Shown piece after piece: positions 4,534-34,431 of a DNA stretch of 64,000 nt (its first letter is position 1; the number at the start of each line of letters is the position of its first letter). A program made the position numbers and the translations under genes. The notes under the pieces are model-generated. The model worked only from the letters and a program-made list of their open reading frames with translations. It was not told where the DNA came from and did not search any database. This DNA comes from Patescibacteria group bacterium (GTDB lineage Bacteria; Patescibacteriota; Patescibacteriia; UBA9934; GWF2-40-263): assembly GCA_004297215.1 (NCBI GenBank), contig SCUM01000001.1, positions 400 to 64,399 of the forward strand, read 5' to 3'.

Positions 4534-4564
4534 CCACGCCTGCTGCGCGATGAGGAGGCCTAGC

Positions 4565-6153: not shown

Positions 6154-6159
6154 GATGGT

Positions 6160-6522
6160 ATGGTGAAGACATTCCAAGACTTGATCGTCTGGCAGAAAGC
6201 GATGGTAGTGACTGAAAGGATTTATGCAATTACGAAATCGTTCCCGAAAGATGAGATGTTCGGTCTCACGTCCCAAATGCGCAGAAGCGCGGTTTCCGTC
6301 CCTTCTAATATTGCCGAAGGTAAATTACGGGGTACTCCTGCTGAGTTCAGACGTTTTCTATCCATTGCGTTCGGTTCTTGCGGAGAGCTTCAAACGCAGC
6401 TGTTGTTAGCGGTCCGCATCGGTTATCTTTCTCAATCGCAAGCGCAGGACATACTGAATCACCTCAATGAGGTGCTTCTCATGACCAACGAACTAATCCT
6501 ACGGAATTCACCCCATTCCTGA
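6160..6522 (+). CDS. Four-helix-bundle protein (TIGR02436, 23S rRNA intervening-sequence / S23-ribosomal type)
   Basis: Signature FQDLIVWQKA...LTSQMRRSAVSVPSNIAEG...CGELQTQLLLA. The gene GC is about 45% against about 65% for its surroundings. Confidence 0.8.
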   Translation: MVKTFQDLIVWQKAMVVTERIYAITKSFPKDEMFGLTSQMRRSAVSVPSNIAEGKLRGTPAEFRRFLSIAFGSCGELQTQLLLAVRIGYLSQSQAQDILNHLNEVLLMTNELILRNSPHS

Positions 6523-6566
6523 GGCCTTATCGCCTAAGGCCTTCACGCCTACGGCCTTATCGCCTT
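6520..6566 (+). repeat. Right terminal inverted repeat of the four-helix-bundle cassette, plus an extra acggccttatcgcc unit
   Basis: Reverse complement of 6121-6153. It ends exactly at the ATG of the next gene (6567). Confidence 0.7.
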
Positions 6567-7781
6567 ATGACAGTCCTCCAGGTCAACAAATTCTGGTTCG
6601 CGCGCGGCGGGGCCGAACGATACGCCCTCGATCTTTCCGACTGGTTGTCCGCGCAAGGCCACGCGGTCGTGCCGTTTGCCATGGCGCATCCGGACAACAT
6701 CCCGACGCCCTATGACGGGTTATTCCCTCCGTTTCGCGACACCGAGCATGTCCGCTTCGGCGCGTCCGGCCTGCGCACCTTCCTTAGCATGGGCTGGAAT
6801 CGGGCCGCGCGTCGGGGGATGAAGACGCTGATACGGCAAACGCGGCCGCACGTCGCCCATGTCCACAACATTTACACCCAGCTTTCGCCATCCGTGCTCG
6901 ATGCGCTTTCCAAAGAAAAGGTCCCGTGCGTGTATACGGTCCATGACCATCACCTGGTTTCCCCGTCATACAACCTCTGGGCGGACGGATGCGGACCGAG
7001 CATCGAAGGGAAAGGTGTCGTCGCGGCAACGATGAGCCGATTCCATAAGAAGTCATACGTCGCGTCGTTCGCGCAGGCATTCACCTTTGCCGCACACCGT
7101 CGATCCAAGGCGTATCAGGTCGGCATAGACGCCTATCTTTGTCCGAGCGAATACATGGCCCGTCGCCTCGTTGCGGCCGGGTTCCCGGAGGAAAAGATCC
7201 GCCATCTTCCTCACGGGATCGATCCTGATGCCGTGGCACCGCGGTTCGACCATGACGGATACGTGCTGTTCGTCGGCCGCCTGGTCCCGGAAAAAGGGGT
7301 CGAGACGGTGCTGCGGGTGGCAAGAGTGCTGCCGGAGGTGCGATTCCGCATCGTTGGGACCGGTCCGGACGAGACGCGGCTGCACGTGCTCGCCCATGGC
7401 CTGACGAACGTGGAATTCCTTGGATCCCGATTCGGGGTCGATCTCGACGAACTCTATCGCGGCGCAGCGGCCGTGCTCATTCCTTCGCGCGTGCACGAAG
7501 TGTTCCCGCTCGTCGCCCTCGAGGCGATGCGCGCGGGAAAGCCGGTGGCGGCGAGCCATGTCGGCGGCATGTCCGAAGTGGTGACGGACCGGGTGACCGG
7601 CTTCCTCGTGAACCCGCTCGACATGCACGGATGGGCCGAGGCCGTGCTGCGGATGGTATACGACGACGCGGCCCGCCGCTCGATGGGCCGTGAAGGGCGG
7701 CGCCAGGCGGAAACGACCTTCCATGTCCGGAGGCATAGGGAGAAATTGATGGGGATATACAGGGAGATAGGAAAAACTTGA
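6567..7781 (+). CDS. Glycosyltransferase family 4
   Basis: GT-B fold. C-terminal EVFPLVALEAMRAGKPVAASHVGGMSEVV (E-x7-E motif). Confidence 0.8.
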   Translation: MTVLQVNKFWFARGGAERYALDLSDWLSAQGHAVVPFAMAHPDNIPTPYDGLFPPFRDTEHVRFGASGLRTFLSMGWNRAARRGMKTLIRQTRPHVAHVHNIYTQLSPSVLDALSKEKVPCVYTVHDHHLVSPSYNLWADGCGPSIEGKGVVAATMSRFHKKSYVASFAQAFTFAAHRRSKAYQVGIDAYLCPSEYMARRLVAAGFPEEKIRHLPHGIDPDAVAPRFDHDGYVLFVGRLVPEKGVETVLRVARVLPEVRFRIVGTGPDETRLHVLAHGLTNVEFLGSRFGVDLDELYRGAAAVLIPSRVHEVFPLVALEAMRAGKPVAASHVGGMSEVVTDRVTGFLVNPLDMHGWAEAVLRMVYDDAARRSMGREGRRQAETTFHVRRHREKLMGIYREIGKT

Positions 7782-7915
7782 AACGTGAAAACTTGAAATC
7801 TTGAAAGGGAGAGGAAAAGGCTGGAAGAATGAAAAAGCGAAACGTTTCAAACCGTTTCGCTTTTTCGTCCTTTCACGTGTCCGTTGGTCCTTCAAGTTTT
7901 CACGTTTCAAGTTTT
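7774..7915. terminator. Bidirectional terminator inside a 25-bp perfect palindromic element (AAAACTTGAAACGTGAAAACTTGAA family)
   Basis: Outer arms at 7774-7798 and 7891-7915 are exact reverse complements. The inner hairpin gaaaaagcgaaacg-tttcaaac-cgtttcgctttttc is flanked by an A-run and a T-run. It lies between convergent GT4 genes. Confidence 0.6.
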
Positions 7916-9173: not shown

Positions 9174-9476
9174 CTATGATTTTGAGGCGCCTTCCCCCTC
9201 TTCCAGCAGGGTTTTCGGGTTCGGGGAGTACAGCTTATTGCGGATTTTCCAGTGGTCCACGTATTGGCCTATGCCGGCGCGGTCCCGCTTGTTGCGAACG
9301 GTGGTGGTTTGCTGGCTCCATTTGAGCAGGGATTCGAAATTGATCTTGTAGCGCCCCTGCACCACGACATAGGTGATTTGCCCGTCGGAAATGGCGCGCC
9401 GGATGGTGCGCTGATGCACCCCGAACAGCCTGGCCGCTTCGGAAACGGAGACGCGGATGATGGAAGCGAGAGGCAT
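9174..9476 (-). CDS. Small HTH DNA-binding protein (excisionase / MerR-like helix-turn-helix)
   Basis: SVSEAARLFGVHQRTIRRAISDGQI is a classic HTH. The upstream in-frame extension is a translation of repeat DNA, so the start was taken at MPLASII. The gene GC is lower than its surroundings. Confidence 0.5.
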   Translation of the reverse strand: MPLASIIRVSVSEAARLFGVHQRTIRRAISDGQITYVVVQGRYKINFESLLKWSQQTTTVRNKRDRAGIGQYVDHWKIRNKLYSPNPKTLLEEGEGASKS

Positions 9477-9485
9477 AAGAATCGG

Positions 9486-9567
9486 GAGGCGATAAGGCCT
9501 CAGGCGTAAAGGCATTAAGGCGTTAAGGGTTTTCCCTCAAGCCTTCTTGCCTAAGGCCTTATCGCCC
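9486..9567. repeat. GGCCT-family element: an inverted pair aggcgataaggcctcagg ... cctaaggccttatcgcc separated by about 45 bp (stem-loop / MITE-like)
   Basis: Direct reverse-complement arms, followed by an AT-rich promoter-like stretch upstream of the ECF sigma gene. Confidence 0.6.
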
Positions 9568-9700
9568 GTGCATTTATACAATATTGTAGACAAACATGCC
9601 TATTTTCGTCAACGTGACCCTAAACTATTGAATAAATACGGTTTTTAGGCTATCGTAAGCCGTTCCTGTAACGATTCATGTAACCGACAAGACAGTAATT

Positions 9701-15584: not shown

Positions 15585-16271
15585 ATGCCCCTGCGTCCCA
15601 AACAGCTTCTCGTGATCGTTTCTGCCGCCGTCGTCGTGATCGTGGGCGGGCTTTGGGCGGGGAAGAGCTGGCGCGCGACGCATCCGGCCGCTCCGGCGCT
15701 CCTGGAGCTGGTGGACCGCGGGATCGACGCGGAGAACATGGCCAAGTTTGAGGAGCGCATCGCGGCCCAGGAGGCGGCGGTGGCCGAAGGGGAACGCGAC
15801 ATAAGCGAGCTCCTGGTGTTGGGGAACCTGTATTATTCCGTGGGCGATCTTAAGAAGGCCGCCGCCGCGTACCGTGACATCCTTTCGTCAAACCCCAACG
15901 ACTCGGCGGCGCACGAGAACCTGGCCCAGGCGCTCATCGAGATGGGGGATTACGCGGGAGCGGAGGCGCAGTTGCGCGCGGCGGCCGACGTGAGCGCGTA
16001 CGAGCCCACCTATCTCAAGCTCGCGGACCTCATCGACGAGCATTTCCCGGCGCGCCGGGCGGAGATACAGGTCATCCTCGAAGCGGCCATCGGCAACCTG
16101 GGGCAGACCCCCGGCCTGCTCACCCGCCTGGGCAAGTGGTACGCCGACAACGGCATGCTCAAGGAGGCGATTTCCCACTACGAAGTGGCGCGCCAGCTGG
16201 CCCCCGACGACCAGGCCATCCAGGCGGAAATCGAACGGCTAGAGGCCGAACAACGAAAAAAGGCCAAATGA
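15585..16271 (+). CDS. Membrane-anchored TPR-repeat protein
   Basis: N-terminal TM helix and TPR-like helical repeats (LGNLYYSVGDLKKAAAAYRDILSSNPND...). Confidence 0.6.
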   Translation: MPLRPKQLLVIVSAAVVVIVGGLWAGKSWRATHPAAPALLELVDRGIDAENMAKFEERIAAQEAAVAEGERDISELLVLGNLYYSVGDLKKAAAAYRDILSSNPNDSAAHENLAQALIEMGDYAGAEAQLRAAADVSAYEPTYLKLADLIDEHFPARRAEIQVILEAAIGNLGQTPGLLTRLGKWYADNGMLKEAISHYEVARQLAPDDQAIQAEIERLEAEQRKKAK

Positions 16272-16278
16272 CGCGCCC

Positions 16279-16425
16279 GCAGAGGGCGCGTCATCCTGAA
16301 GGCCATCAGGCCTGAAGGATCTCATGAGCAGAGGGCGCGTCATCCTGAAGGCCATCAGGCCTGAAGGATCTCATGAGCAGAGGGCGCGTCATCCTGAAGG
16401 CCATCAGGCCTGAAGGATCTCGTGT
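16279..16425 (+). repeat. Three tandem direct repeats of a 49-bp unit (gcagagggcgcgtcatcctgaaggccatcaggcctgaaggatctcatga)
   Basis: Units at 16279-16327, 16328-16376 and 16377-16425. Copies 1 and 2 are identical; copy 3 diverges over its last 6 nt. Confidence 0.85.
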
Positions 16426-16462: not shown

Positions 16463-18203
16463 TGTCACGGCGGGAATCCTCATCGGCCAGCCTGTGTTTG
16501 CGGCCGTTCCCAATGATCCGCTCATCGAGCAGCAGTGGTACTTGGGGAAGATCAAGGCGTTCGACGCCTGGGATACGGCCACCGGATCCGCCAACGTCGT
16601 CGTGGCCGTGCTGGATACCGGACTCGATCTCGATCACCCGGACGTTGCGGGAAACCTCTGGACCAATCCGGGGGAGATTCCCGGCGACGGGTTGGACAAC
16701 GACCAGAACGGGCATGTCGACGACCTGCACGGATGGGATTTCGTGGATGACGACGCCCTGCCCGATCCCTCACCGGCGCCGGGCGACGAGGCGGAAGCCA
16801 CGATCCACGGCACGGCGATCGCCGGGGTGATCGGGGCGATCGGGAATAACGGGACGGGAGTTTCCGGAGTGAACTGGCAGGTGCGCCTCATGCCGCTGCG
16901 CATCCTCGATCGGGAGGGTTCCGGGAATTCGGCGGATGCCACGGCCGCCATCCGCTATGCGATGCGCAGCGGGGCGTCGGTCATCAACTTGAGCTTTACC
17001 GGGGCCGAGGTGGACGGCGTGTTCCGCCAGACGATCAAGGACGCCTACGACGCGGGCGTGGTGGTGGTGGCGGCGGTGGGCAACAAGACGCTCGGCGGGA
17101 CGGACCTGAACCAGGCGCCGTTGTACCCGGTGTGTTTCGAGCAAACCGACGGGGGAGATTCCGTGCTCGGGGTGGCGGCGACCACGCCGCAGGACACCAA
17201 GGCCGGGTTTTCGAATTACGGGTCCTCATGCACCGACATCGCGGCCCCCGGCATCGACATCTTCAACGTGTCCTATCAGGCCGTGGGCACGGACGGGTTC
17301 GCGGAGCCGTATCGCGGCGGCTGGAACGGCACGTCCATCGCGGCGCCCATCATTTCCGGGGCCGTCGCGCTCCTCAAGGGCGCCTTTCCGAATCTCGGCC
17401 CGGCCGACCTGAAGACGGTCCTCCAGTTGTCCGTGGACCCGGTCGACACTGGCGCTCTCCCGCGCGGGGCGCTCGGGGCCGGGCGCGTGAACCTTGCGCG
17501 CGCCCTGGAAGTGGGGAAGGCGGTGTCCGCGGCCAAGGCGCCAGGGACCGCCGCGCCGATCCCGTCCGTGCCTCCCGTCCCTGTGCCGGCGAACGTGATC
17601 GCGCTGCGCGCCACGCGCGTGGTGGTGGCCGCCGGACGCGGTTTTGCCCCGCGCGTGAGCGTGTACGACGGGGAGGGGAAGCGCCTGGCCTCGTTCCTCG
17701 CGTATGCCGAGGGGTTCCTGGGCGGGGTGCAGGCGGCCGTGGGCGACCTCGACCTCGACGGGACCGACGAGATCGTGACCGTGCCCGGAGCCGGCGGCGG
17801 CCCGCACGTGCGCGTGTTCACGCTCGACGGGACGCTCCGCGGCCAGTTCTTCGCTTTCGACGCCGCCGACAGGCACGGGCTTGAGCTGTCCGTCGCGGAC
17901 ACGGACCGCGACGGGCGCGTCGAGATCGTCACGCGCGCGCTCACGGGAGGCCCCTCCGGCATCCGCGCGTTCCGCCTGGACGGGACGCGTCTCGTCGACC
18001 CGGCCTCCTTTGTGGTGCCGGCGTCCCCGCTTACCACCCCCTTCGGCGCCTTCGGTCGCGCGGACTCGACGCTCGCAAGCCTCCTCGCCGACCCCTCCGG
18101 CACGCGCCTTCGGCTCACCGACCGCGCCGGGACGGATCTCGGCGGGTTCGCGCTGCTCGCGCAGGATCGCCCAGCACGTTCGATGGCGGTTTCGTCGCGA
18201 TGA
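16440..18203 (+). CDS. Secreted subtilisin-like serine protease (S8) with C-terminal FG-GAP/VCBS-like repeats
   Basis: Signal peptide. Catalytic Asp (VAVLDTGLDLDHPD), His (HGTAIAGVIG) and Ser (GTSIAAPIISGAVALL). C-terminal DLDLDGTDEIV / DTDRDGRVEIV repeats. Confidence 0.8.
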   Translation: MRRLLFFLVTAGILIGQPVFAAVPNDPLIEQQWYLGKIKAFDAWDTATGSANVVVAVLDTGLDLDHPDVAGNLWTNPGEIPGDGLDNDQNGHVDDLHGWDFVDDDALPDPSPAPGDEAEATIHGTAIAGVIGAIGNNGTGVSGVNWQVRLMPLRILDREGSGNSADATAAIRYAMRSGASVINLSFTGAEVDGVFRQTIKDAYDAGVVVVAAVGNKTLGGTDLNQAPLYPVCFEQTDGGDSVLGVAATTPQDTKAGFSNYGSSCTDIAAPGIDIFNVSYQAVGTDGFAEPYRGGWNGTSIAAPIISGAVALLKGAFPNLGPADLKTVLQLSVDPVDTGALPRGALGAGRVNLARALEVGKAVSAAKAPGTAAPIPSVPPVPVPANVIALRATRVVVAAGRGFAPRVSVYDGEGKRLASFLAYAEGFLGGVQAAVGDLDLDGTDEIVTVPGAGGGPHVRVFTLDGTLRGQFFAFDAADRHGLELSVADTDRDGRVEIVTRALTGGPSGIRAFRLDGTRLVDPASFVVPASPLTTPFGAFGRADSTLASLLADPSGTRLRLTDRAGTDLGGFALLAQDRPARSMAVSSR

Positions 18204-18204
18204 G

Positions 18205-18320
18205 GATGGAGAATGTAGGATGAAGGATGTAGAATGTAGACTGAAGACTGTAGGATGAAGGATGTAGGATGTAGAATTTTCAATAAACTATCCTACAGTC
18301 TACATCCTTCATCCTACATT
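18205..18320. repeat. Palindromic intergenic element of the GATGTAGGATGAAGG family
   Basis: atgtaggatgaaggatgtaga...tgtagga pairs with tcctacagtctacatccttcatcctacat. AT-rich loop. It ends 8 nt before the next ATG. Confidence 0.6.
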
Positions 18321-18327
18321 TCGCTCT

Positions 18328-19344
18328 ATGCCCACCAATCCCACGTTTGAAAAGAAGAACATCCTGGTGACCGGCGGGGCCGGGTTCATCGGGAGCCACC
18401 TGTGCGAACGCTTGCTCAAGGACGGCAATCGCGTGGTGTGCATCGACAATTTCGCGACGAGCAGCGTGCGCAACATCGACAACCTGCTCCCGAACCCGGA
18501 TTTCCAGTTCTTGCGCCTGGACGTGAACCAGCCGTTCGACCTCGAGACGTACGCCGAGCTGTCGGCGTTCAAGCTGCCGTTCCAGGGGATCCAGGAGGTG
18601 TATCACCTGGCGTGTCCCACCTCAATCAAGCAGTTCGACAAGTTCCGCATCGACACGCTCCGGTGCAACGGGGTGGGCAACGAGCATGCGCTCGAGCTCG
18701 CCCGCAAGTACAAGGCCAAGGTGCTGCTCACGGGCAGCTCCGTGGTGTACGGCACCCGCCGCGGCGACCGCATCTTCGTGGAAGAGGGCGACACCGGGAC
18801 CATCGACCAGCTTTCCCCGCGCGCCTGCTATGACGAAGGCCGCCGGTTTTCGGAAACGATGTTCTCCACCTACCGCGCCGTGTACGGCCTCGACACGCGC
18901 ATCGCCCGCGTGTTCCGCACGTTCGGCCCGCGCATGCCGCTCAACGACGGCCATCTCATCCCGGATTTCATCATGAGCGCGCTCGAGGGCAAGGACCTGG
19001 TGGTGTACGGGAAAGGGCAGTTCCGCACCTCCTTCGCCTACGTGCTCGACGTGGTGGACGGGCTGGTGCGCCTCATGAACGCGCCCAAGGACCCGGGACC
19101 GGTGAACATCGGCTCCGACGTGGACATGCCCATCATGCAGGTGGCGGAGATGGTGGTGAAGATGACGCGCTCCGCGTCCAAGATCACGCTGGGCGAAGAC
19201 CTGCTGTTCCTCTCGGAGCTCCCGCTGCCGCGCATCAACAAGGCGCGCGAATTGGGCTGGCTCCCACTCATGCGCTTTGAGGACGGCCTCTCGAAGACCG
19301 TCGAATACATGACCGCCAATCGGTTGCTTTTGTCGGCGATGTGA
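18328..19344 (+). CDS. Extended-SDR NAD-dependent epimerase/dehydratase (UDP-glucuronate decarboxylase/UXS-like) with atypical catalytic residues
   Basis: ILVTGGAGFIGSHLCERL and YHLACPTS are UXS-like. The catalytic YxxxK is instead CYDEGRRFSET (Lys to Arg), and the T-S-E of STSEVYG is TGSSVVYG. Confidence 0.7.
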   Translation: MPTNPTFEKKNILVTGGAGFIGSHLCERLLKDGNRVVCIDNFATSSVRNIDNLLPNPDFQFLRLDVNQPFDLETYAELSAFKLPFQGIQEVYHLACPTSIKQFDKFRIDTLRCNGVGNEHALELARKYKAKVLLTGSSVVYGTRRGDRIFVEEGDTGTIDQLSPRACYDEGRRFSETMFSTYRAVYGLDTRIARVFRTFGPRMPLNDGHLIPDFIMSALEGKDLVVYGKGQFRTSFAYVLDVVDGLVRLMNAPKDPGPVNIGSDVDMPIMQVAEMVVKMTRSASKITLGEDLLFLSELPLPRINKARELGWLPLMRFEDGLSKTVEYMTANRLLLSAM

Positions 19345-19365
19345 GGTAAAGGAAGGCTGTGCGGC

Positions 19366-19421
19366 CGCAGGCGACAAGGCCTCAAGGGAACATCCTCATG
19401 CCTTCACGCCTGCGGCCTTCA
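19366..19421 (+). repeat. GGCCT-family repeat module ending at the GT2 start codon
   Basis: aggcgacaaggcctcaagggaacatcctcatgccttcacgcctgcggccttca. Confidence 0.65.
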
Positions 19422-20108
19422 ATGCCTATGAAGGTGATCGCGGTCATCCCGGCTTATAATGAAGCGGCTCGTCTCGCCCCGGTGCTTTCACGCGTGAAGG
19501 GGCTTGTCGACGAGGTGGTGGTGGTAGACGACGGATCTTCCGACGACACGTTCGAGGCGGCCAAGACCGCCGGCGTCGTGGCGCTCCGGCATGCCATCAA
19601 TCGCGGACAGGGCGCCGCGCTCAAGACCGGCACGATCTCCGCGCTGTCGCGCGGCGCCGACGTGATCGTGCACGTGGACGGCGACGGCCAGCACGACCCG
19701 GAAGGCATTACGGCGCTCGCGCTCCCCATCGTGCGCGGGGAGGCCGACGTGGTGTACGGCTCGCGATTCCTGGGCATCGCCTCGGAAGGGATGCCCGCGT
19801 CGCGTCGAGCGCTGCTCCTTGCGGGCCGCGTGTTCAGCGCCTTCGCGCTGGGGATCCCGCGCACGTTCACCGATCCGCAGAGCGGGCTGCGCGCCATGAG
19901 TGCCGAGGCGGCGCGGCGCGTGACCTTCACCCAGGACCGCAAGGCGCATTGCTCGGAGCTGCTGCGCGCCGTGTCGCGCTCCGGCCTGCGCGTGATCGAG
20001 GTGCCGACGCGCATCACCTATACGCGAGAGACGCTCGCGAAAGGGAACAAGACCGTCGACGCCTTCCATATCGCCTGGCAGCTGCTGCTCGGAGCATTCC
20101 AAAAGTAA
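19422..20108 (+). CDS. Glycosyltransferase family 2 (dolichyl/polyprenyl-phosphate sugar synthase-like)
   Basis: MKVIAVIPAYNEA...VVVVDDGSSDDT...VDGDGQHDP (DxD motif). Confidence 0.75.
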   Translation: MPMKVIAVIPAYNEAARLAPVLSRVKGLVDEVVVVDDGSSDDTFEAAKTAGVVALRHAINRGQGAALKTGTISALSRGADVIVHVDGDGQHDPEGITALALPIVRGEADVVYGSRFLGIASEGMPASRRALLLAGRVFSAFALGIPRTFTDPQSGLRAMSAEAARRVTFTQDRKAHCSELLRAVSRSGLRVIEVPTRITYTRETLAKGNKTVDAFHIAWQLLLGAFQK

Positions 20109-20117
20109 GACGCGAAT

Positions 20118-20480
20118 ATGCTCGTCATCCAAGTCATCCTTGCCGCGACGCTCCTTGCCGCGCTGGCTCTCACCTGGCGGCGCGCCAGGCAAGGCGCCTT
20201 GAGCCGCCGCGCGGCGATCGTCTGGAGCCTCGTTTGGCTTGGCGCCGCCGTCGTCGTGCTGCGCCCGGAGGTCGCCGACCTGTTCGCGAACGTCGTGGGC
20301 GTGGGTCGCGGGTCGGACGCGGTGCTCTACGTGTCCGTGGTGGCGCTCGCGTACCTCATGTTCCGCCTCTTCCTCCGGTTCGACCGCCTAGAGCGGGATA
20401 TCACGAAATTGGTGAGGAGGATCGCGCTGGATGAGGCGACAAGGCCTCAGGCGGACAAGGCCTCAGGGGAAAATCCTTAA
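20118..20480 (+). CDS. Small membrane protein (DUF2304-like GT2 partner)
   Basis: Two or three TM helices, about 120 aa, typical partner of DPM-synthase-like GT2 genes. The C-terminal tail DEATRPQADKASGENP is encoded by the GGCCT repeat. Confidence 0.5.
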   Translation: MLVIQVILAATLLAALALTWRRARQGALSRRAAIVWSLVWLGAAVVVLRPEVADLFANVVGVGRGSDAVLYVSVVALAYLMFRLFLRFDRLERDITKLVRRIALDEATRPQADKASGENP

Positions 20481-20502
20481 CGCCTTCACGCCTGCGGCCT
20501 TC
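20433..20502 (+). repeat. GGCCT-family repeat module (gaggcgacaaggcctcaggcggacaaggcctcaggggaaaatccttaacgccttcacgcctgcggccttc)
   Basis: It overlaps the 3' end of the upstream CDS and ends at the ATG (20503). About 85% identical to the copy at 21615-21686. Confidence 0.7.
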
Positions 20503-21606
20503 ATGCCCCCCAAGATCGCCGTCATCTACCTTTCTTACAACAGCCTCCCGTACCTTCCGGAGGTCGTTTCATCCTGGGAGAAGCTCGATTACCCGCGCGA
20601 GGCGCTTGAGATCGTGATCGTGGACAACGCGAGCGCCGACGGGAGCGCACAGTGGATCCGCGACCACGTGCTTCCCAAGTCCAACAGCGTGCTCCCGCGC
20701 GTCACGTTTTTCCCGTCGGGAGTGAACCTGGGGTTCGCGGGAGGGAACAACCTCGGCATCGACCACGCACTGCTCGAAGGCGCCGACTACGCGTATCTGC
20801 AGAACAACGATGCCAAACTCGACTCTGGCTGCATCCGCGAGGCCGTGGCGCTTGCGCAGTCCGACGAGAACATCGGTTCCGTCCAGTCGTTCATGCGCCT
20901 GTGGCAGGATCCCGAAGTGGTGAACTCCACCGGAGGCATGGTGCATTTCCTCGGGTTCGGGTTCGTGCGCGACAACGGCCGTTACGCGAAGGACGTGACG
21001 GCGACGGACCCATCGACTTCGCTCAGGGTAGACGGCGAAGAGATCGCCTACGGCAGCGGCGCGGCCACGCTCTACCGCGCCACGGCGCTCAAGGCCGCCG
21101 GGCTGCTCGACGACCATCTGTTCCTGTATCACGAGGATCTCGAGCTCGGTTGGCGCCTCCGGCTCGCCGGGTTCCGCAACGTCCTGTCGATGAAGTCGGT
21201 GGCGTTCCATAGGTACGAATTCTCGCGCAGCGTGCAGAAGCTCTACTGGATGGAGCGCAATCGTTGGTTGGTCCATCTTTCGCACCTGAAGGCTGCGTCG
21301 CTCGCGCTCATCGCGCCGTTCATGCTCGTTGAGGAGCTGGCGCTCGCGGCGTTCGCGATCCATGGAGGGTGGTTTTCGCAAAAGCTCAAGGCGTGGGGCG
21401 CCGCGTTCGACCCGCGCACCTGGGCCTACGTCTCGCGCAAGCGCAAGGAGTCGCGCACGATCCGCAAGGTCACGGACGCCGAGATCGTGCGCCTGTGGAC
21501 GGGCAGGATCGAGCACCAGGCGACGAGCAACCCGATCGTGGAGAAGGTGGCGAATCCGGTGTTGGATGCAATATGGAGGGTCGTGAGGAAATGCATTGTG
21601 TGGTGA
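20503..21606 (+). CDS. Glycosyltransferase family 2 (rhamnosyltransferase/WbbL-like)
   Basis: IAVIYLSYNSLPYLPE...IVIVDNASADGS...YHEDLELGWR. Confidence 0.75.
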   Translation: MPPKIAVIYLSYNSLPYLPEVVSSWEKLDYPREALEIVIVDNASADGSAQWIRDHVLPKSNSVLPRVTFFPSGVNLGFAGGNNLGIDHALLEGADYAYLQNNDAKLDSGCIREAVALAQSDENIGSVQSFMRLWQDPEVVNSTGGMVHFLGFGFVRDNGRYAKDVTATDPSTSLRVDGEEIAYGSGAATLYRATALKAAGLLDDHLFLYHEDLELGWRLRLAGFRNVLSMKSVAFHRYEFSRSVQKLYWMERNRWLVHLSHLKAASLALIAPFMLVEELALAAFAIHGGWFSQKLKAWGAAFDPRTWAYVSRKRKESRTIRKVTDAEIVRLWTGRIEHQATSNPIVEKVANPVLDAIWRVVRKCIVW

Positions 21607-21614
21607 AATAGGGA

Positions 21615-21686
21615 AGAAGGCCTCAGGCGGACAAGGCTTCAGGGGAACATCCTTAACGCCCTTACGCCTGAGGCATTATCGCCTTC
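21615..21686 (+). repeat. GGCCT-family repeat module
   Basis: gaaggcctcaggcggacaaggcttcaggggaacatccttaacgcccttacgcctgaggcattatcgcc; it ends 4 nt before the ATG at 21691. Confidence 0.7.
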
Positions 21687-21690
21687 CAGT

Positions 21691-22815
21691 ATGAAAATCG
21701 CCCAGGTCGTCTCGACGTACCCGCCCTATCGCGGCGGCATGGGGCGCGTCGCCCATGAGTATACCGAGCGTTTGCGCGCCCGGGGCGAGAACGTGCACGT
21801 GTTCACGCCGCGCACGCGCAAGGTGATGAGCGACCCCGAGTACGTGCACCGCGTGCCCTCGCCGCTCACAATCGGCAACGGGAGCGTGATGCCGTCGCTG
21901 TACCAGCGCCTCAAGGGGTTCGACCTGGTGCACCTGCACTACCCGTTCTTCGGCGGGGCCGAGCCGGTGATCGTGCGCAAGGCGATCCGAAGCGACCAGA
22001 AGCTGGTGGTCACCTATCACATGGACGCGGTCGCCGACGGGATCCGCGGCGCCATCTTCCGCGCGCACCGCCGGCTCCTGTTCCCCTGGCTCATCTCCCG
22101 CGCGGACCGCATCCTCGTGTCGAGCCGCGAGTACGCGCTGACCTCCGCGCTCGCCGACGTGCCCGGCTGCCTCGACCGCTTGGAAGTGCATCCGTTCGGG
22201 GTGGATCTCGAGCGGTTTCATCCAGGCGACGAGCCGGAGATGCGCACGCGTCTTGCCCTCGACCCGTCCGTCCCGACGATCCTGTTCGTGGGGGGGCTCG
22301 ACGCCGCGCACCACTTTAAGGGGCTCCCCGTGCTGCTTGCCGCGCTCGAACGCGTGGCCGGCCACCCGTGGACCTGTCTCGTCGTAGGCGACGGCGACCT
22401 GCGGCCGAGCCTGCAAGCCACCGTAGAGGCTGGCGCGCTTGCCGGACGCGTGCGATTCCTCGGGAGCGTGAGCGAGGAAGACCTGCCGCGCATCTACCGC
22501 CTCGCGGACGTCCATGCGTTCCCGTCAACCGAGCGTGCCGAAGCGTTCGGACTCGTCGCGCTCGAGGCATCCGCGAGCGGCGTGCCGACCGTCGCGAGCG
22601 ACCTGCCCGGCGTGCGCACGGTGGTGCTCGACGGGGCTACCGGCCTGCTCGTCCCGCCCGGGGACGCGACAAAACTCGCCGATGCGCTCAAGCTGCTCCT
22701 TGAGCGGACCGACTTGCGCGAGCGCCTGGGAGAAAGCGCCCGCAAGCGCGCCGAGGCCGAATTCGCCTGGGAGCCGCTCATCTCGAGATTGCAGGAAACG
22801 TATAAAAGCTTTTAA
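21691..22815 (+). CDS. Glycosyltransferase family 4
   Basis: MKIAQVVSTYPPYRGGMGRVAHEY...ERAEAFGLVALEASASGVPTVASDLPG. Confidence 0.8.
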   Translation: MKIAQVVSTYPPYRGGMGRVAHEYTERLRARGENVHVFTPRTRKVMSDPEYVHRVPSPLTIGNGSVMPSLYQRLKGFDLVHLHYPFFGGAEPVIVRKAIRSDQKLVVTYHMDAVADGIRGAIFRAHRRLLFPWLISRADRILVSSREYALTSALADVPGCLDRLEVHPFGVDLERFHPGDEPEMRTRLALDPSVPTILFVGGLDAAHHFKGLPVLLAALERVAGHPWTCLVVGDGDLRPSLQATVEAGALAGRVRFLGSVSEEDLPRIYRLADVHAFPSTERAEAFGLVALEASASGVPTVASDLPGVRTVVLDGATGLLVPPGDATKLADALKLLLERTDLRERLGESARKRAEAEFAWEPLISRLQETYKSF

Positions 22816-22816
22816 G

Positions 22817-22900
22817 TAGGCGTAAAGGCCTGAGGCGATAAGGCTTCAGGGGACAAGGCCCCAGCAGCTGAGGCCTTCACGCCTAAGGCCTTCACGCCTT
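22817..22900 (+). repeat. GGCCT-family repeat module with three aggcc/ggcct sub-units
   Basis: taggcgtaaaggcctgaggcgataaggcttcaggggacaaggcc...gaggccttcacgcctaaggccttcacgcctt; it ends 3 nt before the ATG at 22904. Confidence 0.7.
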
Positions 22901-22903
22901 CAT

Positions 22904-24115
22904 ATGCGCCTCCTCATCATCTCCAACCTCTATCCTCCCATCCAGCGCGGCGGGGCCGAGCAGGTGGCTTCGCGCATCACGAGCGAGCTGTTCGTGCGCG
23001 GCCACGAGGTGAGCGTGCTTTCCACGATGCCGTACGCGGGGATGGGTTCGCTGCGGTCGCGGGTGACGGAAACCGACCTTGAGCCCATCGAGCGCTTCTA
23101 CCCGCTCAACTTCTACCACACGCTCAACGACCACCGGTACCCGGCGCCCGTGCGCGCGGCCTGGCACATGGTGGACCTGTGGAGCCCGATCCCAAGGCGC
23201 GTCACCCTCGACGTGATCCATCGTCGCGCCCCGGAAGCGGTGCTCACGCACAACCTCAAGGGGATCGGGCTTCAGGTCGCCGCCGCGATCCGCGCCTCCG
23301 GCATCCCGCACGTGCACACCCTCCACGACGTGCAGCTTTCGATTCCCAGCGGCCTGCTCATCGCCGGGGAAGAGCGCGGGCCGTTCAACTCCACCCCGCT
23401 GCGCCTCATGTACGAGGCGGCCACGGGCCGGGCCGTGGGCTCGCCGCACGTCGTCATCTCTCCCTCCCGTTTTCTCGCGGACTTCTACCGCGAGCGCGGG
23501 TTCTTCCCCAAGAGCCGCATCGAGGTGATGCCCAATCCGGCGCCGGACATGGGCACGCGCCCGCAGACCACGCGCCAGGAAGGGCCGCTGCGCCTCCTCT
23601 ACGTGGGCCAGCTCGAGCCGCACAAGGGGATCCGGTTCCTGCTCGAGTCGCTCGAAGGGCTCGACATTCCGTTCCACCTGCACGTGGCCGGCGAAGGGTC
23701 GCTCGCGGCGTTCGTGTCGGATCGGGCCAAGCATGACAAGCGGATCACCTACCACGGGTTCGTGTCGCAGGAACCGCTCATGAAGCTGCTCGCGCTGTGC
23801 GACGCGACCCTCGTGCCGAGCCTCTGCTACGAGAATTCGCCCACCGTGATTTACGAATCGCTCGCGGTGGGGACCCCGGTGGTAGCCAGCCGCATCGGCG
23901 GGGTGGGGGAGCTCATCCGCGACGGGGAAAACGGGTTCTTGTACGAACCCGGCCAGGCCACGGGCCTACGCGAAGCCCTCACGCGCATGGCCGCCAAGGT
24001 CGGGGATTTCCGTGCCCGGGAGGGGGAGATCCGAAAGGGGATGGATGACTACGCGTTGCCCAAGTACGTGGATCGGTTGGAAAAGCTGATTGGGGAGGTG
24101 AAGGATGTAGGATGA
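22904..24115 (+). CDS. Glycosyltransferase family 4
   Basis: MRLLIISNLYPPIQRGGAEQV...ENSPTVIYESLAVGTPVVASRIGG. The last residues (EVKDVG) and the stop are encoded by the GATGTAGG repeat. Confidence 0.8.
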   Translation: MRLLIISNLYPPIQRGGAEQVASRITSELFVRGHEVSVLSTMPYAGMGSLRSRVTETDLEPIERFYPLNFYHTLNDHRYPAPVRAAWHMVDLWSPIPRRVTLDVIHRRAPEAVLTHNLKGIGLQVAAAIRASGIPHVHTLHDVQLSIPSGLLIAGEERGPFNSTPLRLMYEAATGRAVGSPHVVISPSRFLADFYRERGFFPKSRIEVMPNPAPDMGTRPQTTRQEGPLRLLYVGQLEPHKGIRFLLESLEGLDIPFHLHVAGEGSLAAFVSDRAKHDKRITYHGFVSQEPLMKLLALCDATLVPSLCYENSPTVIYESLAVGTPVVASRIGGVGELIRDGENGFLYEPGQATGLREALTRMAAKVGDFRAREGEIRKGMDDYALPKYVDRLEKLIGEVKDVG

Positions 24116-24210
24116 AGGATGTAGGATGAATGAGGACTCATGAAAGAAACGTCCGGAAACGGGCGCTTTTTATATCCTACATACTTCATTCTTCATCCTA
24201 CATTCCGCTC
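24100..24210. repeat. Palindromic element of the GATGTAGGATGAAGG family with an inner terminator-like hairpin and T-run
   Basis: gaaggatgtaggatgaaggatgtaggatgaatgagg pairs with atcctacatacttcattcttcatcctacat. Inner element cgtccg-gaaa-cgggcg followed by ctttttat. Confidence 0.6.
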
Positions 24211-25081: not shown

Positions 25082-25122
25082 CCCCGCTTGAGCAACACTT
25101 GCTCGCGGGGTGTTGTTTTTTA
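25082..25122 (+). terminator. Rho-independent terminator (ccccgcttgagcaa-cac-ttgctcgcgggg, then tgttgtttttta)
   Basis: Stem with a 2-nt bulge followed by a T-run. The T-run overlaps the truD stop on the opposite strand. Confidence 0.6.
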
Positions 25123-31080: not shown

Positions 31081-32522
31081 AGGTCGGATATCGGGTGCTG
31101 TCATGGACGTTTCAGCTCGTGATCGTCGCGATCCCGGTCGCGGCGTTCGGTTGGCTGCTTGCGCAGGAACTCGTGCCGTCGGGGACGTTCGTCGTGAACC
31201 ATGCGGTCGGCGAACGGTCGCCGTTCATCGACCGTTTGCTGCCGGACGCGCGGGTGCCGGACGGGCGCACGATCGTGGACGAGCCCGTGACGTTTTTCGC
31301 GCACCCGCATCGCGCGTTCGACGTCATCGACGTGGACGTGCGGTTCAGGAACCAGGGCGCGGGAATCGTGGAACTCGGCGCCCTCGCCGCGGACGGCCGT
31401 TCCTACGACCTGCGTCCGCTCGAGAACTCGCTCATCGACGGTTCGCCCTGGCATCGGCTGGACGCGGACGATCTCGTGCTCCTGCAACGGACGCCCCGAT
31501 ACGCCTCGATCGCCGATTTCCTCGTGAACCTGCCACCGCGGCATGAGATCGCGACGTCCCATTTCACCCTCCCGACCCCGTATCGGATCCCGGGCTACCG
31601 CGCCTCCGACCAGACGCGCGTGATCGACGCCACGCTGCGCGGGTTCCACGCGTTCAAGACGTACGTCGCGGACGAGACGCTCGCCTTCTCCTTCGCGTTC
31701 ATGGACATGAACCGCGACGAGGGCGCCGACCCGGTGTCGGTCGTCGTCACGGATGAGGGCGGGAAGCAGGTCGCGACCACGTCGATCGGCGACGACGGGG
31801 ACGTTTCCGCGCTCGCGCGGCCGTCCTCCATGCGCTCTCTCGACCTGTCCGTGCCCGGACTGCCCGAAGGCGCGTACAAGGTGGAACTTCGCGCCGGCCG
31901 CGACGTCTTCTTCCGCCGCATCACGACGACGCAACAGAAACTGGTGTTCCTGAACGACGTGTTCTTGGGCGACGAAGTGGCGTACAAGGAACCGGCGCGC
32001 CCGGTACGGTTCTGGACCGAGGCCAAGCATCTTTCCTTCTCGACGACCCACGCCGAAGCGGTGCAGGACCTTCAAATCGGCTCCGCGACGGTGGCGATTC
32101 CGGCTCCATATGCGAAGGTCGATGCCTCCGTGTCGGAAGACGGCGTGGTGCGCGTCACCGCCCCCGTTGGCGACGTGCTGGTGGAAGGGGACGGGCATGT
32201 GGCCTTCTCGCCGGAGTCGTTCTTCAACCCCGATCCGGTGCGGCTTGATTGGAACACGGATATCGACCGGCTCGGCGTGAACTTCGTCATCGCCGCGTAT
32301 GAGAGTCCGCGTCGCGAGGGGGAGTGGACCGTGGCGCATGCGAGCTTTGATGCGCGCGCATTGGCCTTCGAACAAGGGGCTTGGAAGTTCGTGTTCTCCG
32401 TGCCGGGCGTGAAGGCGCTCGGCGCCTCGGTGGAAGTGGACCGCATCGACATGGCGTGGCGCCGGCGTGCCTTCCATTGGGAAGATCTGGCGTATGTGAT
32501 ACAACGGAAACTCGGATTATGA
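31077..32522 (+). CDS. Membrane-anchored hypothetical protein (481 aa) with a large extracytoplasmic domain
   Basis: ATGA overlap with the upstream gene. Single N-terminal TM helix. Confidence 0.4.
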   Translation: MKVGYRVLSWTFQLVIVAIPVAAFGWLLAQELVPSGTFVVNHAVGERSPFIDRLLPDARVPDGRTIVDEPVTFFAHPHRAFDVIDVDVRFRNQGAGIVELGALAADGRSYDLRPLENSLIDGSPWHRLDADDLVLLQRTPRYASIADFLVNLPPRHEIATSHFTLPTPYRIPGYRASDQTRVIDATLRGFHAFKTYVADETLAFSFAFMDMNRDEGADPVSVVVTDEGGKQVATTSIGDDGDVSALARPSSMRSLDLSVPGLPEGAYKVELRAGRDVFFRRITTTQQKLVFLNDVFLGDEVAYKEPARPVRFWTEAKHLSFSTTHAEAVQDLQIGSATVAIPAPYAKVDASVSEDGVVRVTAPVGDVLVEGDGHVAFSPESFFNPDPVRLDWNTDIDRLGVNFVIAAYESPRREGEWTVAHASFDARALAFEQGAWKFVFSVPGVKALGASVEVDRIDMAWRRRAFHWEDLAYVIQRKLGL

Positions 32523-32878
32523 ACGACCTCCGAGAACTTGAAACGCAGGTGGCCGCGACGGGACTGCGCGCGAGCGTCGCGGCATGCCTCGTCTTTTGGA
32601 CCGCCGAGCTGGTCCGCCCAGGGTTCGTCTCACGGTTCCTATCCGTGCACCTGTTTCTGCTTTCGGCCTTCGCGTTTGGCGCCTGGTACGCCTCGCGCGT
32701 GGAGCGGTACCGCGATTGGCCGCTCGTCCAGTACGCGGTCGCGGCGCTGCTCGTCCCCGCGTGCGCCTACGCGGCCTGGACGCTCGGACAAGGGCTCGGC
32801 GACCTGCGCCTCCTCGCCGCCGCCTTCGCCGCCCTCGTCCCGCTCCTCATCCTCCCCCTGGCCCGATCTTCTTCCTAA
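32519..32878 (+). CDS. Small integral membrane protein (4 TM helices)
   Basis: ATGA overlap with the upstream gene. The stop lies inside a reverse-oriented GGCCT repeat. Confidence 0.35.
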   Translation: MNDLRELETQVAATGLRASVAACLVFWTAELVRPGFVSRFLSVHLFLLSAFAFGAWYASRVERYRDWPLVQYAVAALLVPACAYAAWTLGQGLGDLRLLAAAFAALVPLLILPLARSSS

Positions 32879-32910
32879 TGCCTTGTCCGCCTGAGGCCTT
32901 CTCCGCCTTC
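32874..32910 (-). repeat. GGCCT-family repeat in reverse orientation
   Basis: The reverse complement contains aaggcctcaggcggacaaggc. It ends 2 nt before the HIT ATG. Confidence 0.55.
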
Positions 32911-32912
32911 TT

Positions 32913-33356
32913 ATGACCGACCCTTCAATAAACTCAGGGTTTAACAACTGCGTCTTCTGCAAGATCGTCACGGGCGACATCCCGTCGCACAAGGTGTACG
33001 AGGACGCCGACACGCTGGCGTTCCTTGACATCCATCCGGTGAACGCCGGGCACACGCTCGTGATCCCAAAGGCGCATTTCGAGAATTTCGCGCAGACGCC
33101 GAAGGAGACGGCCGCGACGCTCCTCCACCTGTCCCAGCGCCTCGCCCCCGGCATCCTCAAGGCGGTCGGGGCCGACGCGTTCAACCTGTCCACCAACAAC
33201 GGCCGCGCGGCCGGACAGCTGGTGTTCCACACCCATTTCCACCTCATCCCGCGTTTCCCGGCGGACGGGCACAAGATGTGGCAAGGTTCCGACGAGCACC
33301 AGGATTTCGCCGCGATGGCATTGAAAATTAAGGAGTGCGTAGGACGTAGTGCGTAG
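32913..33356 (+). CDS. HIT-family (histidine triad) nucleotide hydrolase
   Basis: HTLVIPKAHFENF and the triad FHTHFHLIPR. Confidence 0.8.
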   Translation: MTDPSINSGFNNCVFCKIVTGDIPSHKVYEDADTLAFLDIHPVNAGHTLVIPKAHFENFAQTPKETAATLLHLSQRLAPGILKAVGADAFNLSTNNGRAAGQLVFHTHFHLIPRFPADGHKMWQGSDEHQDFAAMALKIKECVGRSA

Positions 33357-33397
33357 GGTTTTTGCCTACGTACTACTAACTACCAACTACGCACTAT
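33333..33397. repeat. Palindromic element of the GTAGTGCGTAG family; it covers the HIT stop and ends at the rfbB ATG
   Basis: gtaggacgtagtgcgtaggg...ctaccaactacgcact. It shares the 16-mer ctaccaactacgcact with the copy at 34366-34431. Confidence 0.6.
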
Positions 33398-33402
33398 CCA
33401 CT

Positions 33403-34371
33403 ATGAAACTCCTCGTCACGGGCGGCGCGGGATTCATCGGCTCCGCGTTCGTGCGCTACACGATCCGCGAACATGCGGACGACCGGGTCGTGACCCTCGA
33501 CGCATTGACGTACGCGGGGAATCTCGAGAACCTTGCGGACGTGAAGGACAACCCGCGCCACGAGTTCGTCCATGGGGACGTCTGCGACCGGCGTCTCGTG
33601 CGGGAGATCGTAAAGGCGAGCGACGCGGTCGTCCACTTCGCGGCCGAAAGCCACGTGGACCGGTCCATCGCCGGCGCCAGCGATTTCGTACGTACGAACG
33701 TCCTCGGGACGCTGTCGATCCTCGACGCGGTGAAGGAACACGGCAAGCGCCTGCATCACATTTCCACCGACGAGGTGTTTGGCGCGCTCAAGCCCGATGA
33801 CAGGCCGTTTAACGAGCATTCGTGCTACGCCCCGCGCAACCCGTATAGCGCGAGCAAGGCCGCGGCCGACCATCTCGTGCGCTCGTACGTCATCACGCAC
33901 GGCGTGAAGGCGACGATCTCGAATTGCTCGAACAATTACGGCCCGTATCATTTTCCCGAAAAGATGATCCCGCTGTTCATCACGAACCTGCTCTCCGGGA
34001 AGAAGGTGCCGGTGTACGGCGACGGCCAGCAGGTGCGCGATTGGATTTACGTGGAAGACCACGTGCGCGGCGTGGACCTGGCGCTGCGTGAGGGGAAGGT
34101 CGGAGAGACCTATCTGTTCGGCGGCGACGGGGAGATTTCGAACCTTGAACTGACGAAGAAGCTGATCGCCTTGTGCGGTCGTGACGAGAGCGCCATCGAG
34201 AACGTCGCCGACCGCCCGGGCCACGACCGCCGCTACGCCATCGATTACGGGAAGGCCAAGCGTGAGCTTGGCTGGGAGCCGAAGATCGGATTGGACGAAG
34301 GGTTGAAACGGACCGTCAAGTGGTTCAAGGCGAACCAAGACTGGGTGGCGAGGAGCAAACGAAGGGGGTAG
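33403..34371 (+). CDS. rfbB: dTDP-glucose 4,6-dehydratase
   Basis: MKLLVTGGAGFIGSAFVR...YSASKAAADHLVRSYVITHG; about 320 aa. Confidence 0.85.
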   Translation: MKLLVTGGAGFIGSAFVRYTIREHADDRVVTLDALTYAGNLENLADVKDNPRHEFVHGDVCDRRLVREIVKASDAVVHFAAESHVDRSIAGASDFVRTNVLGTLSILDAVKEHGKRLHHISTDEVFGALKPDDRPFNEHSCYAPRNPYSASKAAADHLVRSYVITHGVKATISNCSNNYGPYHFPEKMIPLFITNLLSGKKVPVYGDGQQVRDWIYVEDHVRGVDLALREGKVGETYLFGGDGEISNLELTKKLIALCGRDESAIENVADRPGHDRRYAIDYGKAKRELGWEPKIGLDEGLKRTVKWFKANQDWVARSKRRG

Positions 34372-34431
34372 TGGGTAGTACGTAGTGCGTAGATTATCGT
34401 CCTACGCACTACCACCTACCAACTACGCACT
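34366..34431. repeat. Palindromic element of the GTAGTGCGTAG family (gtagtgcgtag-attatcgtc-ctacgcactac)
   Basis: Perfect 11-bp arms. It overlaps the rfbB stop and ends 8 nt before the rfbD ATG. Confidence 0.65.

Follow-up and report, generated by a model that had tools for sequence, protein, structure and literature searches.

Results

We analyzed a 64-kb stretch of contig SCUM01000001.1 (this whole stretch is called the window below), which comes from a member of the Patescibacteria whose nearest named relatives are Candidatus Uhrbacteria, and looked into the AAGGCC repeats that lie between its genes. These repeats are probably one family, here termed family A, of palindromic elements, mobile or at least of a copy-and-paste type, that resemble the intervening sequences (IVSs) of rRNA genes and that have invaded the spacers of operons and one 5′ untranslated region (5′ UTR). 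The original prediction made for this window had taken them either for junction cassettes specific to a polysaccharide locus or for insertions akin to miniature inverted-repeat transposable elements (MITEs). The second proposal fared better, given that the corresponding junctions of relatives are empty and that the copies align over their full length; the repeats look like genomic parasitism and not like a special organization of sugar-coat genes.

Copies of one hairpin-forming element

All eight repeat stretches listed in the original prediction were located in the window at the positions it gave, and the motif AAGGCCTCAGGCG, with two or fewer mismatches, occurred 20 times versus 2.57 times expected (0 of 100 shuffled sequences reached 20). 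Seven family-A loci, all outside conserved coding sequence, account for 19 of the 20 matches. The parsing into eight separate modules did not hold, since a single element has its two arms at 6121-6153 and 6520-6566, and the stretch at 32874-32910, described as a reversed copy, is a solo 3′ arm. That the repeats are palindromic and linked to a gene for a four-helix-bundle (4HB) protein of the intervening-sequence type had been missed.

Full family-A copies are imperfect hairpins that carry AAGGCCTCAGGCG on the plus strand in the 5′ arm and on the minus strand in the 3′ arm. The 5′ arm consists of one to three tandem words of about 15 nt (AAGGCCTCAGGCGAY), each made of AAGGCCTCAGGCG and a 2- to 3-nt spacer (unit size, 13 to 16 nt); the 3′ arm is the reverse complement, and a short apical part, AGGGGAAMATCCTTAACGCC, is common to the copies. 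The short copies are 56 to 88 nt long, contain no open reading frame (ORF), and have interrupted stems of 19 to 33 pairs. The predicted RNA folds of the family have minimum free energies of −34 to −53 kcal/mol (z = −3.3 to −5.5).

The six best copies, five from the window and one from locus L062 of Ca. Uhrbacteria RIFCSPHIGHO2_01_FULL_63_20, aligned over their full length with a mean column identity of 64%. The aligned repeats are therefore copies of one element and not independent low-complexity runs. Furthermore, when orientation was set by the downstream gene, 13 of 15 pairwise alignments were better in the same orientation. The copy at 9486-9567 is inverted, together with the minus-strand HTH gene that follows it. 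Measured from the last paired or repeat base, the ortholog-supported start codon lies 0 to 4 nt away in six cases, as had been stated for the repeats at large; it lies about 7 nt away for a GT2 gene (ATG 19428) and about 10 nt away for the HTH gene.

A 17-base pattern searched over 596 Gb of genome contigs was of little use for finding further copies, as the pattern was too short and the 120 matches listed were mostly due to chance; the sole true family-A-like hairpin among those 120 listed matches was that of L062. A two-unit pattern searched in metagenomes gave six matches, none of them convincingly family A (simple hairpins or direct tandem arrays).

Individual copies and their start codons

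The window is a cell-envelope polysaccharide region with Wzy-like, GT4 and GT2 glycosyltransferase, DUF2304, epimerase, and rmlABD-like genes. Copy A1 (19363-19420, plus strand; −43.3 kcal/mol, z = −4.15) lies between the epimerase gene (stop codon 19342-19344) and the GT2 gene that starts at 19428, placed between a retained Shine-Dalgarno (SD)-like string (GGTAAAGGAAGG) and the GT2 ATG. Copy A2 (20441-20501, plus strand; −39 kcal/mol, z = −3.3) ends 1 nt before the ATG of another GT2 gene at 20503, substitutes for the last approximately six codons of the DUF2304 gene, and provides its stop codon (TAA 20478-20480). Copy A3 (21612-21687, plus strand; −34.1 kcal/mol, z = −3.3) separates a GT2 gene (stop codon 21604-21606) from a GT4 gene (ATG 21691), and copy A4 (22818-22900, plus strand; −53.4 kcal/mol, z = −5.35), which has two to three words per arm, separates two GT4 genes (stop codon 22813-22815, ATG 22904). 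No internal promoter or terminator was found in the operon at 18.3-24.1 kb.

Copy A5 (9487-9567, minus strand) is oriented, by alignment, with a minus-strand gene that matches HTH_17 (E value = 3.8e-9) and whose ATG, the reverse complement of 9474-9476, follows about 10 nt after the stem. It makes up nearly the entire 5′ UTR of this gene, and a promoter-like TTGACG-18-TACAAT sequence (9612-9583, minus strand) lies just 5′ of it. The minus strand folds at −53.5 kcal/mol versus −47.6 kcal/mol for the plus strand (−53.5 versus −44.7 kcal/mol on 9484-9570). The solo 3′ arm (32874-32912, plus strand, with the motif on the minus strand) is flanked by an ORF for a small membrane protein (32519-32878) and by the HIT gene (ATG 32913); it is without a 5′ partner and has no significant fold (z = −0.29), and this junction is about 29 nt longer than the same junction in the related locus L124. 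The outer 5′ end of the element reads GTAGGCG in A4 and ATAGGCG in the composite copy described below and in its ortholog at locus L137, and the remaining copies begin otherwise; the tag conserved at one end of repetitive extragenic palindromes, a class considered below, is GTAG or CGTC. Because copies also precede the HTH and HIT genes, family A is not specific to the polysaccharide locus.

As the original prediction had it, some C-terminal tails are encoded by the repeats, namely, those of the Wzy-like protein (ending in ALNRREGLRR) and of the DUF2304 protein (ending in DEATRPQADKASGENP). A related observation concerns annotation: the public model of the GT2 gene behind A2, P0001 (391 amino acids [aa]), takes as its start ATG 20431, which falls within both the DUF2304 gene and the hairpin. 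This start is 24 codons too early and adds repeat-encoded residues, given that orthologs start at the equivalent of ATG 20503.

We also evaluated translation signals across the window. A −10-like hexamer (TANNNT) ends 6 to 11 nt upstream of 13 of 43 starts versus 1.2% of random positions (for example, at 4613, 16440, 51731, 41772, and 62160 and, on the minus strand, at 28802, 9076, and 61966), and SD-like 4-mers occur at 8 of the 43 gene starts. Since −10 boxes are this frequent and SD-like 4-mers this rare, the first genes of operons appear to be leaderless, and translation appears to be largely leaderless or coupled. The absence of an SD sequence between repeat and gene, pointed out in the original prediction, is thus real and is not peculiar to the repeats.

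The geometry of the copies invites the idea that the hairpins serve as structural bridges for translation, each bringing the upstream stop codon or a distal SD-like string beside the downstream ATG and so preserving termination-reinitiation coupling or a split ribosome-binding site of the kind known from phage T4 gene 38. Stop codons are located within the stem or 2 to 18 nt 5′ of its base, ATGs lie 0 to 10 nt 3′ of that base, purine-rich, SD-like strings stand upstream of A1 to A3, and the ancestral TAAGG-like string is kept just 5′ of the epimerase/GT2 hairpin. Bridging would nonetheless account for the tolerance of the hairpins and not for their origin; the solo arm and the 5′-UTR copy do not fit it, and SD-like strings are rare at other genes. 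We consider it improbable that bridging explains the repeats.

A composite copy with a four-helix-bundle gene between its arms

The longest family-A element is a composite of 446 nt (6121-6566, plus strand) with a 5′ arm at 6121-6155, an ORF at 6160-6522, and a 3′ arm at 6517-6566. Its arms (35 nt, 97% complementary) lie 361 nt apart and form a duplex of about 38 bp (−82.8 kcal/mol) that encloses the ORF. The encoded protein of 120 aa matches PF05635 (23S rRNA intervening-sequence protein; E value = 2.2e-40) and TIGR02436 (four helix bundle protein; E value = 4.5e-37). The upstream Wzy-like gene ends within the composite (stop codon TAA, 6143-6145), and the ATG of a GT4 gene follows directly at 6567. 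The PF05635 ORF is absent from the short copies. We interpret the composite as the long form of the element, which carries the PF05635 gene in its loop, and the 56- to 88-nt copies as ORF-less versions with the same arms.

An orthologous composite with family-A arms is present at locus L137, where the Wzy-like and 4HB proteins are 80% and 79% identical to those of the window. The 5′ arm is longer there, and through it the Wzy-like tail is 8 aa longer, a case of the tail-length polymorphism that the original prediction had foreseen. Two positions apparently changed on both arms between L137 and the window with pairing kept, as judged by eye and with no formal count.

The only longer element with family-A arms thus encodes a 4HB protein and not a transposase, and no transposase, reverse transcriptase, or Nop-domain protein was found among the proteins of the window. 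This bears on a second explanation, by which the repeats would be classical repetitive extragenic palindromic (REP) sequences or REPINs mobilized in trans by RAYT, a Y1 tyrosine transposase. REPs and REPINs are likewise extragenic imperfect palindromes that form hairpin doublets and multicopy families; RAYT-like Y1 transposases are common in Uhrbacteria (7,738 homologs, some named RayT by JGI; weak match to NF047646), and one RAYT-like gene lies 2.3 kb from a 4HB element. On the other hand, the RAYT-like genes of Uhrbacteria are flanked by a palindrome of their own, GGGGTCAGRTCCGG, which occurs neither in the window nor at any of the 4HB loci. In addition, no Y1 transposase is encoded in the window, none of the 120 RAYT homologs listed lies on the 842-kb source contig, and the family-A arms are tandem-word arrays and not single REPs of 20 to 40 nt. 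A REP/REPIN origin is therefore very unlikely in our estimation. The GGGGTCAGRTCCGG palindrome is perfect and flanks the RAYT-like genes of loci L138 (2416-2472 and 3411-3475) and L139 (2441-2482 and 3354-3395) in the classical REP/RAYT arrangement.

TIGR-Tas systems have a regular repeat array, variable spacers, and a Tas (Nop-domain) gene (PMC12045711). TIGR-Tas and CRISPR arrays were rejected as candidates for the repeats because these have no variable spacers, one to three units per arm, and mutually complementary arms, with no Nop or cas gene in the window.

Empty and differently filled junctions in relatives

Next, we compared the window with three syntenic loci, L122 (Ca. Uhrbacteria 63_20), L123, and L124, whose proteins are 73 to 75% identical to those of the window and which have the same gene order (epimerase, GT2, DUF2304, GT2, GT4, GT4). 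Start codons in the window were fixed by the N termini of orthologs. At the GT2-to-GT4 junction, the relatives have TGGTGA-T-ATG with a spacer of 1 to 5 nt and the window has 84 nt; at the GT4-to-GT4 junction, they have 9 nt or an ATGA overlap and the window has 88 nt. At the DUF2304-to-GT2 junction, an ATGA overlap or 3 nt in the relatives corresponds in the window to a hairpin in place of the last approximately six codons, so that the DUF2304 tails HENRK, AQAKK, and FEHRK of the orthologs are replaced by ATRPQADKASGENP. At the epimerase-to-GT2 junction, all three relatives have 18 to 20 nt with a TAAGG-like string and no hairpin, and the window has kept the string with a hairpin between it and the ATG. 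A check of related genomes for empty sites of this kind had been suggested in the original prediction. Comparison of filled and empty sites at the four junctions revealed no target-site duplication.

In some relatives, the same junctions are filled with something else. The DUF2304/GT2 junction of L124 contains an unrelated hairpin with a 27-bp stem that ends 3 nt before the ATG, and that of L147 (77% identity) contains a hairpin resembling family B, one of the other families described below. L147 also has a small unrelated hairpin of CCTATCA words at its GT4/GT4 junction, and its GT2/GT4 junction is tight. As the junctions of relatives are empty or filled with unrelated hairpins, the family-A hairpins are by these comparisons lineage-specific insertions, and the same junctions have been hit independently in other lineages.

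Two further claims were not supported. It had been suggested that the repeats could drive cassette shuffling, and gene order is identical in the hairpin-free relatives. They had also been credited with a preference for stop/start targets; junctions are almost the sole noncoding DNA here, and selection alone gives the pattern.

Apparent strain-level insertions and deletions between L121 and L122 proved to be scaffold gaps. The L147 contig starts (1-90) inside the family-B-like hairpin, and many 4HB homologs lie on contigs of about 1 kb; tandem-word repeats probably break short-read assemblies.

Other hairpin families in the window

At least four further word families (B, C, D, and F) follow the same grammar as family A with different words and at other junctions. 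Most of their hairpins end 3 to 8 nt before a start codon, and their 5′ arms are purine rich and their 3′ arms pyrimidine rich. Family B (AAAACTTGAAACGTG words) is represented on the plus strand at 7773-7915 between convergent GT4 genes (arms of 25 nt, 100% complementary), at 36372-36514 between rmlA-like and S41 peptidase genes (62-nt arms, −88 kcal/mol), and at 62660-62785 between methyltransferase and DUF4178 genes (54-nt arms). Family C (ATGTAGGATGAAGG words) has a plus-strand hairpin at 18212-18320, which follows the S8 peptidase gene and ends 7 nt before the epimerase ATG at 18328, and a second one at 24099-24206. The hairpins of family D (GTAGTGCGTAG words) at 33349-33400 and 34363-34431 precede the rmlB-like gene (ATG 33403) and the rmlD-like gene (ATG 34440), respectively, and that of family F (GAGGTTTGAAAGG words) at 50171-50260 ends 3 to 4 nt before ATG 50264, all on the plus strand. 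The presence of such families at rml, peptidase, and pyridine nucleotide-disulfide oxidoreductase genes is a further reason not to tie a junction cassette to the polysaccharide locus alone.

The syntenic stretch of the relatives is nearly free of hairpins of the B, C, D, and F types, and the source genome has therefore undergone a general proliferation of hairpins. One of these sites shows what an insertion can do to a leader. The spacer before the epimerase gene measures 24 to 27 nt in relatives and contains a −10 box (TAGAAT or TATACT) at 9 nt from the ATG (L122, 7925-7948; L123, 7466-7491). In the window (18199-18328), a relict GAGAAT is separated from the ATG by the family-C hairpin, which turns a leaderless start into a structured leader of about 110 nt.

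Strong, GC-rich hairpins after stop codons might also act between genes as attenuators or factor-independent terminators. A T-tract is missing behind every family-A hairpin, canonical stem-plus-T-tract terminators lie elsewhere in the window (4562-4589, 24150-24165, and 25090-25118), and the family-A hairpins stand within an operon that is contiguous in relatives, so that termination is an extremely unlikely explanation of family A. Two hairpins of other families do contain terminators: the canonical one at 24150-24165, with its T-tract, lies in the apical loop of the second family-C hairpin, and the loop of the family-B hairpin at 7773-7915 holds a bidirectional terminator-like hairpin. Either arms were added around a terminator, or an element was inserted into one.

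Known Rfam RNAs were rejected as an identity for the repeats: the sole match in the window at the gathering threshold was a tRNA, and an E-value scan gave only subthreshold, microRNA-like matches on families B and C. Three side observations concern other sequences of the window. The ribosomal protein L28 gene is preceded by a long stretch (41580-41720, minus strand) that is rich in pyrimidines and includes family-B-like words (CCTTTCACGTTTTC, GGTCCTT). At 16271-16420, upstream of the S8 peptidase promoter, a 49-nt unit (GCGCGTCATCCTGAAGGCCATCAGGCCTGAAGGATCTC...) is present three times in direct tandem; the unit is single copy in L122, and this type of repeat differs from the hairpins. Between 56000 and 60000, the GC content falls from about 0.64 to 0.50-0.54, and the ORFs at 56489-57397 (minus strand), 57423-57653, and 59056-59268 have no Pfam match; this segment may be foreign DNA.

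Four-helix-bundle genes between tandem-word arms in other phyla

We then looked at PF05635/TIGR02436 genes outside rRNA genes and found tandem-word inverted arms around 10 of 11 loci. The positive loci are the gene at 6160-6522 of the window and L132, L135, L137, L141, and L142 to L146, and their hosts are Uhrbacteria, an Anaerolineae bacterium, and, for five loci, cyanobacterial plasmids; among the 11 loci, the Lentisphaerae locus L140 was negative for inverted arms. Arm scores were 12 to 32 versus at most 14 in shuffled sequences, and nine loci scored above every shuffle; the Leptolyngbya locus (12) did not.

The words differ from host to host. Two further lineages of Uhrbacteria bracket their 4HB genes with AGGCAGTAGGC words and with CCTACAACC/GTAGGTGG words, and the Anaerolineae gene, which lies between aldehyde dehydrogenase and glyoxalase genes, is bracketed by GATATTAG words. 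On cyanobacterial plasmids, 4HB genes between cas6 and cas4 are flanked by heptamers (GCTAAAA in Pseudanabaena, GGTGACA in Anabaena sp. 90), and the remaining arm-bracketed plasmid loci are those of Calothrix, Geminocystis, and Leptolyngbya. A survey from 2013 described 18 PF05635-type genes within cas loci and did not mention arms (PMC3936711), and in the literature that we searched, we found no description of tandem-word hairpins flanking PF05635 genes. The embedding of 4HB genes in tandem-word hairpins inside operons is thus recurrent across phyla and apparently undescribed so far.

One could go further and regard PF05635 genes plus tandem-word hairpins as pan-bacterial "operon intervening sequences," of which the 23S rRNA IVS would be the rRNA-resident special case. 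Such elements would colonize any transcribed spacer and be removed or neutralized by RNase III cleavage of their stems; in the genome studied here, ORF-less forms would have become standard cistron separators that give short-leader mRNAs. We regard this generalization as rather unlikely as it stands.

Discussion

Our preferred reading is that family A consists of IVS-like elements that invade the tiny spacers between cotranscribed genes, and one 5′ UTR, of a compact genome. Insertions would survive only in spacers, and the impression of precise placement at junctions would arise because high coding density leaves spacers as nearly the only DNA where insertions survive. An insertion that clips the 3′ end of a gene donates a new tail and stop codon. 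The hairpins may be tolerated because they fold on themselves, leaving the downstream AUG unpaired and keeping stop and start codons spatially close, and a compact, SD-poor operon that depends on coupling could thereby survive the insertion.

Several observations weigh against this reading. We found no transposase, target-site duplication, or other insertion signature, so that presence/absence and the similarity of the copies make up the case for mobility. Every one of the six orientable copies, the one on the minus strand included, runs in the direction of the gene behind it; a purely neutral element need not do so, and this co-orientation with transcription speaks for some RNA-level constraint. 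Sense and antisense folding energies gave a mixed picture, with the sense strand not consistently more stable and hence no clear signature of RNA-level selection. The copies were counted within 64 kb of an 842-kb genome, and, beyond the family-A-like hairpin of L062, scans of wider genome and metagenome collections recovered no further family-A copies. Finally, the gene for RNase III (rnc), the enzyme to which we turn next, is not in the window.

The 20- to 38-bp stems are plausible RNase III substrates, as are the stems of rRNA IVSs, and through cleavage, the cistrons would come apart and a short leader rich in pyrimidines would be released. Whether or not this is of use to the cell, that such processing takes place at all is possible but on balance doubtful, judging from stem length and analogy; that it is adaptive is unlikely. 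A stronger form of the argument holds that the hairpins are adaptive intercistronic cassettes, cut just upstream of each ATG to yield monocistronic mRNAs with short leaders or none, as in the early genes of phage T7. In its favor, the stems end 0 to 10 nt before start codons, copies run in the direction of transcription, translation looks leaderless or coupled (13 of 43 starts with −10 boxes, 8 of 43 with SD-like strings), family-C hairpin C1 separates a relict −10 box from the start codon of a gene with leaderless counterparts in relatives, and the stems of rRNA IVSs are RNase III substrates (PMC4990558). However, in relatives this operon is expressed from genes that overlap or abut and lack hairpins, which makes the hairpins dispensable, and occupancy varies among lineages and junctions. 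Moreover, RNase III cuts within stems, which would leave a leader of 10 to 25 nt and not a 5′ AUG; the sense strand is not more stable, and at the HIT gene, a 3′ arm without its partner is tolerated. Apart from the position of the cut, these points tell against any required function of the hairpins, and we think it unlikely that processing cassettes account for family A.

The notion of a junction cassette was an overinterpretation that can be removed, as the insertions are missing in relatives and are not specific to the glycosyltransferase locus. The analysis also joins three topics that are usually separate, namely, rRNA IVSs with their S23p/4HB ORF, the short tandemly repeated repetitive (STRR) hairpins of cyanobacteria, and REP-like palindromes. 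Were it true that 4HB genes are generally the cargo of operon-inserted tandem-word hairpins, the origin of IVSs and the role of S23p would become testable, and cultivable cyanobacteria, such as Anabaena sp. 90 with its cas6-4HB-cas4 locus, could serve as a test system. On the practical side, tandem-word repeats mislead gene callers, as with the GT2 start of P0001 inside a hairpin, and probably disturb assemblies.

The closest known relatives in architecture are the rRNA IVSs with an S23p/PF05635 ORF of Coxiella burnetii and Leptospira, in which an inverted-repeat stem surrounds the ORF as in the composite. The Coxiella IVS, which measures 428 to 444 nt and contains an S23p ORF, is closed by a terminal stem of 28 bp that RNase III cuts in the middle, and it is described as being of unknown origin and mobility (PMC4990558); the composite measures 446 nt with a stem of about 38 bp. 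PF05635 ORFs are also found in insertions of rRNA genes of the candidate phyla radiation (PMC11270868). Like the short family-A copies, the rRNA IVSs of Salmonella, Yersinia, and Campylobacter are ORF-less forms, and rRNA IVSs and family A alike have a sporadic, lineage-specific distribution that suggests mobility, inside a transcribed unit. Unlike rRNA IVSs, family A lies between protein-coding genes or in a 5′ UTR and not in helix 9, 25, or 45 of 23S rRNA (no rRNA was found in the window, so the location that defines an IVS is lacking), has arms of tandem short words, and occurs in many copies per genome; RNase III excision from the transcript without ligation, as in rRNA IVSs, is only proposed here.

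MITEs such as the Correia elements of Neisseria are, like family A, small elements with inverted ends near gene starts, cotranscribed, and absent from the corresponding sites of relatives. Correia elements are RNase III substrates. Family A differs from MITEs in having no target-site duplication and no known parent insertion sequence and in that the whole element is a hairpin. The likeness to the RNase III hairpins of phage T7 early genes, which are intercistronic and near the next start, concerns possible working only; they have no sequence or evolutionary relation to family A, and for the elements of the window, cleavage is only proposed.

STRR hairpins of cyanobacteria lie, for example, between the cotranscribed genes hupS and hupL, with proposed roles in transcript stability or translational coupling (PMC2670836). 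As in family A, short tandem words form hairpins in spacers of cotranscribed genes, and our analysis found STRR-like heptamer arrays bracketing 4HB genes on cyanobacterial plasmids; no link between STRRs and PF05635 genes was found in the literature searched. STRR units are 7 nt long and specific to cyanobacteria, whereas family-A units are 13 to 16 nt long and occur in Patescibacteria, so that the likeness is architectural only. REPs and REPINs share with family A extragenic palindromes, inverted doublets, families within a genome, and a position at gene 3′ ends. Family A differs from them in that no cognate RAYT was found, its arms are tandem arrays, and a 4HB gene, instead of a transposase, lies between the arms. 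Taken together, family A is a variant of the IVS-like, STRR-like, and REP-like palindromic elements.

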